Position numbers and translations under genes: made by a program
In this document: positions 42,156 to 62,750 of the stretch, piece by piece
Layout: every line of letters starts with the position of its first letter
Numbering within the stretch: position 1 is the stretch's first letter
Notes under the pieces: generated by a model
What the model saw: the letters and a program-made list of their open reading frames with translations, nothing else
What the model was told of the DNA's origin: nothing
Databases searched by the model: none
Assembly (NCBI GenBank): GCA_951406725.2
Contig: OX597819.1
Span: 93,186,001-93,250,000, forward strand
Direction: 5' to 3'
Length of the DNA stretch: 64,000 bases
DNA from: Octopus vulgaris
Taxonomy: Eukaryota

Positions 42156-43580
42156 TGTTTCGTTATTAGCCACACAGGGCTGCACACAGATGGAACAAAT
42201 TACAAGGTAGAGCTTTTCTTTTGAAGGGTTAAAAAAAAAAAAAAAAAAAGGAAGGGGGAGTTTCGATCAAAAGGGATCGTAAAAGGAGAGAAAGAGGACA
42301 AAAAAGGGGGGTTAAAAAAAGGGGGAGAGGAAAAAAAAAAATTGATCAATAGGGATCGTTATCACAGAAATGTCAATATGAAGTGTAAAGGGGAGGACAG
42401 GTGAGGTTTACCCGTGGAAAGAAAAGCCTACGGAAAAGACCACGGTAACCTCGGTCAATGAAGTCACATTTTATATTTCTTTTTTTTTTTTTTTTTGCAA
42501 ATAAGCAACTCTCTGTTTTCGATTTCTGGGTTCATAGGACTATGCTCAAGGTGGCTTCGTCATTCATACGTGCCATTCTTGCTACATTCACCCATCTTTT
42601 TTTAAAACATTCGCTAGACAAAACTTGCCTCTCTACTCTCACTTTCCTTTTCAAGTGGTACTTGAAGAAGTTGATGAGAGATTGACCAGAGAGGAAAGTG
42701 TTTGTCTCCAATCCTTTCAGACGCGTCCACCAGATACATTCTTTCGCCATAGCCACAAGGATGATGAAAATAGCTCTTCCTTCCCGTTTGAAGGAAGGAG
42801 GCGTGACAATATTGACGATAGACTCAGCTGATAAACCGACTCGTCCCACACGTGACAGCAGTTGTTCGACATAAGCCCACAGGTCGGAAATTGTTGGACA
42901 CTGCACGAGTGCCTGCAGAACGGTTTCGTCGCTCTGACCGCATCTCGGGCAGGTCGGCCCCGTGTTTCTCGAGCCGTGTCTGTAGAGCTTATCCCGAACG
43001 GGTAGCGCTTCTCGGTAGCACTGCCAGGCCAGGGATCTCTGGAAGTTGTCCATGGGCCCTGGCCCGAAAGTCGTCCTGAACAGGCGGGTTAGGTACTCCT
43101 CGTCGACGTCCAGGTTCGCCCCGAGCTCGTCGTCGTACCTCCCCTCCACTAAACCCCTATAGAATGCTTTGGTTGTGTTGAAGTCACTTAAGGTCGACCC
43201 AGGACGGCAGAGTTGCTTGAGAGCAACGCGACACTCGCGGCGCCATTCGCCCTTCCTCGGCCTCTTTTTGATCCACGACTGCAGTTCGGTCATGAAGACG
43301 AGCTGCGGGAAAGCGTGCCTCACAAACGGCGACCACACCTGTTCACCTGTTCGTGGCTAGACACTATGACGGTGACGTCGTCCGCGTATGCAGACACGCT
43401 CGTCCCGCATCCCAGTTCTCGCGGGATGCCTCTCAAAGTTGCCAGCTTCCGCAATAATGGCTCGAGAGTCAATACGTATAAAAGCGACGAGAGGGGTCAT
43501 ACCTGACGGACCGAACGTGCGATGTCGAAGGGTCTCGATAGATGTCCATTCACGCGTATTACCGAACGGATGCCTCTGTA
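42156..43580 (-). mobile_element. 5'-truncated, internally deleted Tx1/L1-clade LINE (RT core plus zf-RVT and 3'UTR)
   Basis: VRQV*PLSSLLYVLTLEPL...SAYADDVTV at 43350-43580 is joined to ORF 42532..43338 with AWQCYREALPVRDKL...CPRCGQSDETVLQALVQC. (GATA)n on both sides. Confidence 0.93.
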
Positions 43581-44856
43581 GATAGATAGATAGATAGATA
43601 GATAGATAGATAGATAGATAGATAGATAGATAGATAGATAGATAGATAGATACAGATACAGATACATAGATATTACTTATAGCAATAATTCCAAATGTGC
43701 CCTACAAAAACACTAATTTTCCAATGCTTGTCGATACTAGCAAATTGTTTTATCTTCCTCCCCCCTTTCTCTCTCTCTCTCCCTCTCTCTCTCTCTCTCT
43801 CTCTCTCTCTCTCTCTTTCTTGCTTTCAGTTCCTTCTCCGTACATTTCTCCGTACTTCTCTTATGCTCACTTTCCACTCAGCTTTTCACTCAAACTCTCT
43901 ATATGATTTTATTCCTTCACTTTTTCTAACCACTTCACTTTCCAATCTCTATCATCCTCAAAATGCTCGCTATTCTTTAACCATATCAGGCTTAATTAAC
44001 AAACACTGTACGGTGTAAAATCCAATATAGTCAGCTATGGACACATTTCAGAAATTCGATGAAATTTAATGCAAACTCTTGATGACAATGTTTCTTCTCC
44101 TTCACTATCATTCTATCTTATTTCTACTCGAAGTACTTTGGTTTGATACATCATCAATTGATGGCAGTAGTATCAACATTTAATTCCGATAGGCACAGTA
44201 ATTATCTACAGCACGTGGTCCATAGCTGATGTTTATAACAAGGCTGTGATTTCCTTAATTATAGTATTTGTAAATTGCACATTTACAGATCTCTCTATAA
44301 ATAATCTTAACTTGTGGAATTATCAACAGACGTCATTCCAAATGGCGAATGTAAAGTGTCTAAGACACCACAGGCGGTTCTCTCGAATTTTCATAGTAAC
44401 TAAATTATTCGCTTAACAGATTTGCAGAAATTCTGGTTCTGTATCCTTCACTTGATAACATAGTGCGCTACACATTGTCATCTTTAAAAATACATATATG
44501 TATGGATATAGGTGTATGTGTATGTATGTATATATATATATATGTGTGTGTGTGTGTGTGTACATATATATGTATTTGTGTATATATATATGTATATGTA
44601 TGTACATATATATATATATATATATATATATATATATATATATATATATATATATGCATGTGTATATATGTATATAAATGTGTTTATATATAGAAGTGTA
44701 TTATATATATATATATATATATATATATATATAAGAGAGAGAGAGAGAGAGAGAGAGAGTAATAATAAAGGGTGAAATCAATTAATTAAGAAGTAATCAG
44801 TAATTTCACCAAGTTGAATTCGGCATAAAAAGATCAATTCATGGTAAGCTTAAGTA

Positions 44857-45086
44857 ATACTTTATAAATAGGGTTCAGCAACGATTTGCTTCACCACATA
44901 CCGAAGTTTAGAAATAGCAGTCAAAAACTCTTAGCTATTCCTTCTACTTTAAAAGGGGCTCAAGTACTTTGGTTTTTCTGGGAGCCCCTTTTAAAGTAGA
45001 AGGAATAGCTAAGAGTTTTTGACTGCTATTTCTAAACTTCGGTATGTGGTGAAGCAAATCGTTGCTGAAACCTATTTATAAAGTAT
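44857..45086. repeat. Near-perfect foldback (105-bp arms, 20-nt loop), Penelope pLTR-type
   Basis: Arms 44857-44961 / 44982-45086 with one mismatch; related to the arms of 45371-46078. Confidence 0.92.
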
Positions 45087-45218
45087 ATATGTATATATAT
45101 ACGTATATATACGTAAATATATATATATATATGTAGGTCCCGGGTTGAGTCGGGGTTAACCACAGTAAATAAGGTACTCAATACAGAGCAGAGTAAATTT
45201 ATTTATTTTATAGAAGGA

Positions 45219-45267
45219 GCTTCTACAGGACTAGAACTGTTTCATTCAAATGAAATCACCAGGAAGC
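45219..45267 (-). ncRNA. Type I hammerhead ribozyme motif with one core substitution
   Basis: Minus strand GCUUC-CUGGUGA-UUUCA(UU)UGAAU-GAAA-CAG(UUCUAGUC)CUG-UA-GAAGC: all three stems pair; core CUGGUGA instead of CUGAUGA. Confidence 0.7.
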
Positions 45268-45370
45268 TTGCTGGCAAGATAAGTTCTGGCATTTATACAT
45301 TTAGGCAGATTTAATGGGGTGGTGGTGGGGGACAATATATATATATATATATATATAAATATATATAATT

Positions 45371-60420: not shown

Positions 60421-61147
60421 TAGAGAGGCTGAGAGAGAGAGCATGTGTGTGAGAGAAAGGGGAGGAGAGAAAGAGTAGGAAAGAGAAAGTTTACCAGAAA
60501 TGTTGCAGATTAGGAAAATGGTGATTTAGAATTGCTCAGCAATAGAGTGGATAATAGCGTATAGATGAATAACAACAAAAAATTTAATTTGACCTTTTAG
60601 CACTAAGTATTCTTGGTATTTTGGCGAAAATTGTGCTTGCTATAAGCTGGAAACACAAAAGACACAGGTTAGTTTGAACTAAAGTGTTTGTTCTTTGCTC
60701 ACCTGAAACTATGACTGTTATATGTTCACCTGAAACTATGGGATGTTATGTATATAGATGTATGTATGCATGTATGTATGTGTGTGTGGATGTGTGTATA
60801 TATATATATATATATATGTAGATAGATGTATGTATGTGTGTGTGGGTGTATGGATATATATGTATATGCACATGTATGTAAGCGTATGGATATGAAAGTA
60901 AATAGATCAATAGACAGACGGATAATTGCATAGGTTATATGAACAAACAAGCACACATACGCAAATGAAGACTGAAACACATGACCATATATACACACAC
61001 ACTTTACTTCGCACAAAGACACATATGGAGACGCATATCCACATATGAGATACACATCCATACATACAAACACGGTACATAGTTGCAAAACTCACACACT
61101 GACACACCCACATGAGCACAAGCAAGCAAAAAAGAACGCAGTGTGAG

Positions 61148-62026
61148 TAACGGACAGAGTCAAAACTATTGAAAAGGTTGCAAGACGCAACGAAAATTTT
61201 AGAAAAGTATAAAAGAAATAAGTGGAAGATTTACCGGTAAGTGTGTTAAATTATAAGGCACCAAAAGAGAAACTCTCCCCAGACACAACAGTATATATAT
61301 ATAGATATATATATACACACACACACACACACATATATACATATATATATATATATATATATATATATATAATTGATGAAGGAAATGGGAGATAGATTTG
61401 ATACTAGTCTTTATTCAACATGACGATCGTTTCGACCCCTCCCGCGATTGTTCTTTTATGGGTGGGAAATTGTGCGTCGATCAGGGCAGTCTGGCTCACA
61501 TCAGGTACATGCATGCATAGAGTGGTGTCTCGCTAAATATACTAAGTTCTGTGTGTGTGTGTGTACGCCTGCGCATCTGTTCATGTTAGAAAGTGTAGAC
61601 TCTCTCTCTTTAAACTTAATGTAATCTAATCTTTCATTAATGTGTCTTGCTCTCTATTGTTTTTATTTTTTATTTTTTTATAACTTTATGGTTATGTTGT
61701 TGTCTGGGGAGAGTCATTTTCTTTTGTGCCTTATAATGTAACAAACTCACCGGTGAAATTTCCACTTATTTCATAATTTTATTTTCCTAAAATTTTCGAT
61801 GCGCCTTGCAACCTTTTCAATAGTCTTGACTCTGTCCGTTATGATTATTTTGTTATGACTAATATTTAAGGACAATTGTAGCTTGCCCCATTCACTGGTT
61901 ATAACGAGGATAGAGCGGGTAAACAATGACATGCCTGCGAGAACTCAGTATATTTAGCAGGACACCACTTTATGTATGCATGTACCTGATGTGACCCAGA
62001 CTGCACTGATCGATGCAACGCAATTG
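61148..62026. repeat. Two interleaved inverted-repeat pairs of Penelope pLTR type
   Basis: Pair 1: 61148-61290 / 61696-61841. Pair 2: ~61468-61550 / ~61940-62026. Minus strand near 61410-61435 reads gtcGAAACGATCGTC, the hammerhead 3' half. Confidence 0.75.
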
Positions 62027-62439
62027 GATGCACTTGGATGCAACTGGATGCCAAATCCATCTTCCGTTTCCTTCATCAATTATCATTATCTCCACTTACA
62101 TATTGGAATTCCTGAAGTAAATCCTACGAAAAAACATACCCCAAATGTGGATGACACCGGGTCGCATAAACTGTGAAAGTGCTTTACTCAACACACTAAT
62201 TGAAAATGCAGAAAATTATATATATGCATACACACACACACACACACACACACACACACACACACGCACATACATACATACATACATACATACATACATA
62301 CATACACACGCACGCGAGCGCACACAAACACACATATATATACGTATGTATGTACATATGTATGTATTCACGCGTACACTTACATTCATCGTTTCACACA
62401 CTCGTACGTGCATGTAAGCATGCATACACAGCTATTTAG

Positions 62440-62530
62440 TTGATGTTTAAAATTCAATGAGAAATCTACTTTCTAGATTAGAAACCGGATCTTTCGCCAT
62501 TGGTGAAGAATTTGATAAATATGACTTGAA
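62440..62530 (+). mobile_element. RLE retrotransposon 3'UTR remnant
   Basis: gatgtttaaaattcaatga...ctagattagaaaccggatctttc...attgg resembles 19388-19475; CATA-like context. Confidence 0.55.
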
Positions 62531-62553
62531 AATATTTATATAGGTACGTACGT

Positions 62554-62750
62554 ATAAAGGCGGTGGGCTGGCAGAAACGTTAGCACGCCGGGCGAAATGC
62601 GTAGCCGTATTTCGTCCGCCGAGGTCGACTTTGCCTTTCATCCTTTCGGGGTCGATAAATCAAGTACTGGGATCGATATAATCGACTTAATCCGTTTGTC
62701 TGTCCTTGTTTGTCCCCTCTATATTTAGCCCCTTGTGGGCAATAAAGAAA
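62554..62750 (+). mobile_element. Family N SINE, young tail, 17-bp TSD
   Basis: TSD tatataggtacgtacgt at 62537-62553 and 62751-62767. Confidence 0.93.

Follow-up and report, generated by a model that had tools for sequence, protein, structure and literature searches.

A young SINE of Octopus vulgaris with a Tx1-type 3' tail and a likely partner among the Tx1 LINEs

A short interspersed nuclear element (SINE) of about 220 bp occurs in ten copies in a 64,000-nucleotide stretch of the Octopus vulgaris genome (assembly GCA_951406725.2, contig OX597819.1, forward-strand positions 93,186,001 to 93,250,000), which is referred to here as the window and numbered from its first letter. Head and body are common to these copies, while the last 45-60 bases differ and fall into three classes, termed tails A, B and C. 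Tail A, which is borne by the young class of copies, almost certainly originates from the 3' end of a long interspersed nuclear element (LINE) of the Tx1 group. The young SINE was likely copied by the ORF2 protein of a Tx1 family that is a sister of the LINE found in the window.

Tail A and the 3' ends of Tx1 LINEs

An initial sequence-only reading of this DNA had proposed that the terminus of a Tx1 LINE aligns with the tails of the least-diverged SINE copies. Indeed, the LINE terminus at 42156-42215 (minus strand) and the tails of the SINE copies at 12087, 35907 and 62557 align end to end, and in the comparison with the last of these 40 of 57 columns are identical and the final base is the same. 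For the window LINE end, the mean local score over 44 tail-A copies is 34.5, compared with a mean of 13.8 for its dinucleotide shuffles (z 11.7; 0/300 reach the observed value), the shuffle test being based on 300 dinucleotide shuffles, 15 of the 44 tail-A copies and LINE ends taken by coordinate. The a/c variant previously read in the Tx1 terminus is explained by another LINE 3' fragment, older but from the same lineage, which lies in a (TATC)n array at 41037..41399 (minus strand) and is 81% identical.

The match to tail A is a property of the whole Tx1 radiation and is not special to the window LINE. Among 26 representative Tx1 3' ends, 24 exceed every one of the 300 shuffles, with mean tail-A scores of 58.2 for family c1a, 54 for c0b, 49 for c5 and 48.7 for an older member of the window lineage. 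None of eight non-Tx1 ends passes the same test (scores 9-15); these belong to what we take, by eye, to be two RTE types, a Dong-like and a CR1-like element and one other LINE of the restriction-like endonuclease type. A non-Tx1 donor of tail A was rejected on these grounds, and the comparison of tail consensus and LINE 3' ends yielded no better match outside Tx1 among the ends tested. Moreover, tails B and C remain near background against all 34 LINE ends (scores 11-18), and a profile derived exclusively from Tx1 ends recovers 41 of 45 A tails, none of 30 B tails and none of 28 C tails, with no match on reversed DNA. Upstream controls from the untranslated region (UTR) score 13-21 against tail A. 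The earlier proposal that the SINE had switched to a Tx1-type tail is borne out in so far as the match is significant, occurs in the young subfamily alone and is shown by none of the eight non-Tx1 ends.

Tail classes, ages and origin of the SINE

Three window copies bear tail A, namely those at 12087..12300 (minus strand, with a 10-nt deletion in the tail), 35907..36133 (minus strand, followed by GGT) and 62557..62752 (plus strand, GGGCAAT subtype, with internal deletions and a target-site duplication (TSD) of about 19 bp). Tail B is found in the older copies at 8928..9141 (plus), 51620..51830 (plus), 58735..58942 (minus) and 29291..29492 (minus) and in an old copy at 6096..6306 (plus), in agreement with the earlier remark that the copies there placed at 8928, 51615 and 58735 end differently from the young ones. 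Two older copies carry tail C, at 36811..37012 (plus) and, 5'-truncated, at 34980..35141 (minus). Divergence from the class majority, at non-CpG positions, amounts to 4.7-5.4% for the three A copies, 11-25% for the five B copies and 13% for the one C copy measured.

A census of the window plus 600 kb of samples spaced evenly over the genome comprises 155 units, of which 46 are A, 33 B and 30 C, 33 are 3'-truncated and 13 unclassified. Once the units had been filtered by score and length, leaving 45 A, 28 B and 27 C, the median divergence of head and body at non-CpG positions is 5.3% for tail A, 14.5% for B and 14.0% for C (p about 1e-10), confirming the expectation that tail-A copies are younger. 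From the 43 tail-A units in the 600 kb, a total of about 200,000 is estimated for the 2.8-Gb genome. Tails B and C both often terminate in (ATT)n, and most of their copies finish in ATT repeats, whereas A copies do not. No LINE partner of tails B and C was found in any of the loci examined, and a search with these tails gave nine matches without a SINE body upstream, none of them in a LINE-like context.

With respect to the origin of the SINE itself, a search for a tRNA ancestry returned no genes with ARAGORN and no matches in Rfam, while words resembling the box consensus are visible. A MetaSINE central domain was rejected, since by eye the SINE bears no likeness to the BivaMeta and BivaMD sequences available from the source, and of four MetaSINE motifs searched there, three gave no match and the fourth matched only V-SINE rows. 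Derivation of the body from an RTE 5' UTR was likewise dismissed, there being no common match upstream of the open reading frame (ORF) in 11 RTE loci of two families; three SINE matches in RTE loci are single-locus SINE insertions. In addition, apparent SINE dimers, in which a tail-A unit precedes a B/C unit lacking its head, were noticed at L066:4728-5120, L073:9326-9720 and L210 (minus strand). The first of these is flanked as a whole by a duplication and has the head of an old-type variant, as if a young unit had been joined seamlessly at the 5' side.

A predicted hairpin common to SINE and LINE ends

For 29 aligned ends (5 SINE, 24 LINE), RNAalifold predicts a stem of 4 bp. All four pairs change on both sides across the 29 ends, by counts that ignore relatedness, and 88.5% of the hairpin cells are paired as opposed to 70.5% after shuffling (0/500) and 23-51% when the hairpin is slid along the alignment. 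Hence, the fold check on the common stem-loop returned a predicted hairpin that covaries. Single-sequence folds often add a lower stem that includes the AATAAA-like word. In 27 of 41 tail-A copies, G replaces the second A of AATAAA; since these copies have lost the word, what the SINE retains is something other than a poly(A) signal.

Insertion sites and the sister family cS

Complete tail-A copies are followed by GG[T/C] in 26 of 41 cases, against a background of 1.7%. This preference divides the copies by subfamily, as it is seen in 26 of 32 copies of the GGGT type and in none of nine of the GGGC type. Furthermore, 16 of the 41 run into the body of another SINE, at a site in its head that is also used by the sister Tx1 family cS. 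All three tail-A copies of the window lie outside (GATA)n, as had been stated of the young copies. TSDs are detectable in 13 of 34 and in 13 of 29 SINE copies, the second set having been picked by similarity to one SINE copy, and measure mostly 13-22 bp; in six sister Tx1 copies they measure 16-19 bp. Thus, a comparison of TSDs and insertion motifs gives a divided result: the motif GG[T/C] marks tail A, whereas TSD length, being similar in A and B/C, was rejected as a discriminator of tail classes. In several SINE copies the 3' repeat starts with GGC and the 5' repeat with GGT, and this mismatch suggests that junction bases were templated from the RNA end onto the target.

A full-length Tx1 of family cS lies in a tail-A SINE at the head site, with a duplication of about 16 bp. 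Among 20 further cS copies, ends were found in 17, and 15 of these run into the SINE body, 14 of them at model position 46-48 and one through a deletion; of the remaining ends, the sixteenth begins with the same bases and one does not. In the tree, cS groups with c0, c1, c2 and c12. Nine of the ten cS copies nearest the query are inserted in tail-A hosts (three cS hosts are unclear overall), and four older copies (L390, L391, L395, L396) in B/C hosts. Pairwise distances, from small samples, are 9-12% for old cS and have a median of 12% for tail-A SINEs. The old cS copy L391 carries the AGTAAA variant of the SINE and reaches a tail-A score of 56.7, with 42 of 48 positions identical. Families c0, c1 and c2 were rejected as drivers of the GGT subfamily, since GG follows the LINE end in only one of 55 loci (L141), a count in which the end was not located in two c2 loci. 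As driver of the GGGT subfamily, old cS is the foremost candidate. In the sequence-only reading the driver had been pictured as possibly a non-specific sister Tx1; a sister Tx1 is supported, but the best candidate is not non-specific, as cS inserts at the SINE-head site where the SINE lands too.

The window LINE and its relatives

The LINE copy of the window (42156..43580, minus strand) is a 5'-truncated member of a family termed cW, belongs to the L1/Tx1 group and lies within a (TATC)n array. It comprises a C-terminal ORF2 frame with the Pfam domain zf-RVT (42532-43356, minus strand), a 3' UTR of about 375 nt and no poly(A). Its 3'-terminal signal (42156..42215, minus strand) consists of a pyrimidine-rich run, the predicted 4-bp hairpin, an AATAAA-like element and a direct junction with the target. 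An internal ORF2 fragment of the same family (50713..50835, minus strand; 123 bp, 99% identical) has GATA arrays on both sides and is without a 3' end. In family cW, 28 of 30 copies run directly into TATC repeats with no poly(A), and sister Tx1 families occupy other targets, namely (ATT)n, (CT)n or the SINE head. The window LINE was rejected as the direct partner of the SINE because its tail score is below that of several sisters and its target differs.

Full-length cW relatives of about 6.07 kb encode ORF1 and an ORF2 with apurinic endonuclease (APE), reverse transcriptase (RT) and zinc finger. The ORF2 frame of 1116 aa matches PF03372, PF00078 and PF13966, and the upstream frame(s) gave no Pfam match. 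The closest PDB match to ORF2 is human L1 ORF2p (E 2e-49, residues 38-844), R2 follows with E 5e-20, and there are no CR1 or RTE chains among the 13 PDB matches. The best named homologue of ORF2 comes from Argonauta hians. The grounds for assigning the family to Tx1, as opposed to L1 proper, are its architecture and the specificity of its target; the RT trees cover only this LINE radiation and mostly unnamed homologues. In the underlying zf-RVT search, 150 of 25,803 candidates were scored and 90 examined, with further loci added; among the loci examined, the radiation comprises about 20 families whose ORF2 is 53-74% identical to that of the window family. A search with family c8 retrieved family c8 alone.

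An (ATT)n-targeting Tx1 family (L155, L256-L285) is very young, and its matches often lie about 5.87 kb apart, like head-to-tail arrays, ten of them on contig C50. At L185, the end of a c3-family Tx1 is followed by a stretch that presumably resembles the 5' end of U1 small nuclear RNA.

Proposed mechanism and alternative explanations

Most likely, an older SINE acquired a Tx1 3' end of about 55-60 bases, which likely replaced the older tails; the capture may have come about by template switching or by an insertion that was 5'-truncated to a very short piece. The direction of transfer would be from LINE to SINE, because deeply diverged Tx1 families have this end in common, while among the SINEs it is confined to the youngest class. 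Subsequently, the predicted hairpin would have been recognised by Tx1 ORF2 proteins, with target-primed reverse transcription as the route by which the SINE was copied. The GGGT-type subfamily may have been driven mainly by older cS members, with a looser targeting (GG[T/C]) that was possibly aided by pairing of the SINE RNA 3' end to the nicked DNA, and a second Tx1 driver probably served the GGGC-type (GGGCA) subfamily, which lacks the GGT preference. The TATC-specific copy of the window is probably a relative of the donor and not the driver. In its widest form, this scheme describes an animal L1/Tx1 radiation with stringent, poly(A)-free recognition of a hairpin, from which a SINE took that hairpin and rose to some 200,000 copies by way of a Tx1 landing in the SINE head, RNA 3' pairing helping in the choice of site; for the whole of this a somewhat less than even chance is allowed. 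If true, the SINE would supply targets and the LINE the enzyme, so that each would feed the other.

Several observations weigh against this scheme. The Tx1 ends c3 (37/300) and c3b (6/300) fail the shuffle test, and the LINE termini were first placed by aligning to the SINE tail, which favours a match; the placed termini were later seen to coincide with the point at which the copies diverge. No sampled Tx1 family matches the whole of tail A, as its first ~36 nt match c5 and its last ~45 nt match cS, c0 and c1, which are different branches. When LINEs were sought by a pattern spanning the entire tail, 13 sites were returned, consisting of 11 c5-family ends and two SINEs, with no LINE bearing both halves; the donor of tail A may be an unsampled family, or tail A may be a mosaic. 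The hairpin counts do not control for kinship of the ends, and TSD length does not distinguish A from B/C. With regard to cS, young copies score only 38.9 against tail A, old cS is equalled in score by c1a (56.7 and 58.2, respectively), and L391 is a single copy whose tail could have been taken from the SINE by conversion. Finally, the ends of cS, c0, c1 and c5 are absent from the 600 kb of random DNA, which contain 43 tail-A units and four window-lineage ends.

The last of these counts bears on a different driver, namely older subfamilies of the microsatellite-targeting lineage of the window copy, with the SINE RNA end rather than the endonuclease picking GGT. This lineage contributes four of the seven Tx1-type ends in the random DNA and is the commonest there, its older member has a tail-A score of 48.7, and the GGC start of the 3' repeat as opposed to GGT in the 5' repeat of several copies points to an RNA end templated onto the target. 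Nevertheless, such a driver is considered unlikely, given that 28 of 30 cW copies end in TATC and none of the 34 and 29 SINE junctions does, that the cW hairpin loop is unlike that of the SINE, and that the exact site of the SINE is common to cS. Another explanation accepts the homology as ancestry, the tail having been captured once and carried as a passenger during relaxed copying or copying by the old partner of B/C, without stringent recognition. It accords with the similar TSD lengths of B/C copies, with the fact that no partner of B/C was found among the 34 LINE ends and the loci examined, and with a possible role of the hairpin in 3'-end formation of the LINE RNA. Yet the target preference changed along with the tail (GG[T/C], cS site), B/C copies mostly end in ATT repeats and A copies do not, and the entire young burst bears tail A, which leaves this explanation improbable too. 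Chance or convergence between sequences rich in T and C with an AATAAA-like word is largely refuted and retains only a very slight probability: pyrimidines abound in both ends, and an internal stretch of a second SINE family is like the first half of tail A, but dinucleotide shuffles, upstream-UTR controls and reversed DNA score far lower, and the best matches, 42 of 48 positions identical, finish at the same base. Mobilisation by a sister Tx1, with cS foremost, is preferred to all of these.

Comparison with known SINE/LINE systems

Animal L1-group elements are the textbook example of the 'relaxed' type. Stringent SINE/LINE pairs with a common 3' end are described for L2, CR1, RTE and I/Nimb (PMC3747384), and SINE partners in molluscs for CR1, L2 and Nimb (PMC11481361, PMC4824008, PMC4758252). 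The octopus SINE resembles stringent pairs in the terminal 35-60 nt with a stem-loop, the exchangeable tails on one body and the overlapping ages (PMC3747384, PMC11481361, PMC4824008). It differs from them in having a likely partner from the L1/Tx1 group; neither a Tx1 nor a cephalopod pair appears in Table 1 of PMC3747384, and in the bivalve papers (PMC11481361, PMC4824008) the term 'Tx1' does not occur. Stringent pairs of the L1 clade were previously reported from plants and algae only, as far as these sources extend, namely LINE1-1_ZM with ZmSINE2/3 in maize and sorghum and L1-1_CR with SINEX-3 in Chlamydomonas (PMC3472496, PMC3747384). An L1-group LINE and a conserved, covarying 3' hairpin common to the SINE are features of both, whereas the present case concerns an animal, lacks a poly(A) tail and involves target-specific LINE families.

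In crocodilians, Tx1-Mar was inferred to mobilise SINEU from the target and common heads, without 3' similarity to the LINE (PMC4494074). Here, too, a Tx1 likely mobilises a SINE, and the common target lies inside another repeat; SINEU, however, is poly(A)-tailed and targets Mariner, whereas the target here is the SINE itself. Kibi, specific for (TC)n, and Koshi, specific for (TTC)n, are microsatellite-targeting LINEs (PMC3812793, PMC4494074) and, like the window family, of the APE type, although the target here is (TATC)n and, within the passages on Kibi and Koshi, neither such a target nor a SINE partner is given. Tail exchange with retention of the body and replacement of a LINE-derived tail is known from SINEs such as ERE4B and IdioSINE2 (PMC5786205). 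The bodies of these SINEs derive from RTE 5' UTRs, whereas the two RTE families sampled here lack the SINE body as a common 5' part. For O. vulgaris, recent activity of 13 L1-Tx1 families is reported together with a burst of SINEs and LINEs at JC 0.065 (PMC13282606), partners or tails being unmentioned in the passages covered. In a search of the published literature, with Repbase and Dfam outside its scope, no SINE was encountered whose tail derives from a Tx1 LINE.

A Tx1 radiation with a covarying hairpin, several targets and a high-copy passenger would make Ohshima's model, in which the stringent type is ancestral and the relaxed type derived, testable in an animal. Moreover, its naturally occurring variants would allow recognition of the RNA to be studied apart from the choice of target, and the radiation is a likely driver of one class of octopus SINEs that is both large and young.

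Other repeats in the window and elsewhere in the genome

A second abundant SINE family is represented in the window at 19988-20351, 25353-25570, 27592-28222 and 37041-37265, and its internal stretch like the first half of tail A was seen at L052, L070, L073, L084 and L307. By eye, the 3' ends of CR1-like LINEs (L095:4230-4292, L075:7290-7352) resemble the 3' end of this family, and the two likely constitute a conventional CR1/SINE pair. At 18658-19480 (plus strand), a LINE 3' remnant ends in (CATA)n, its end matching none of tails A, B and C; it presumably contains a restriction-like endonuclease motif, with no Pfam match. Furthermore, two pairs of long inverted repeats, each 98% identical (28606-29072 with 31223-31689 and 45367-45614 with 45835-46082), are likely young DNA transposons or foldback elements.

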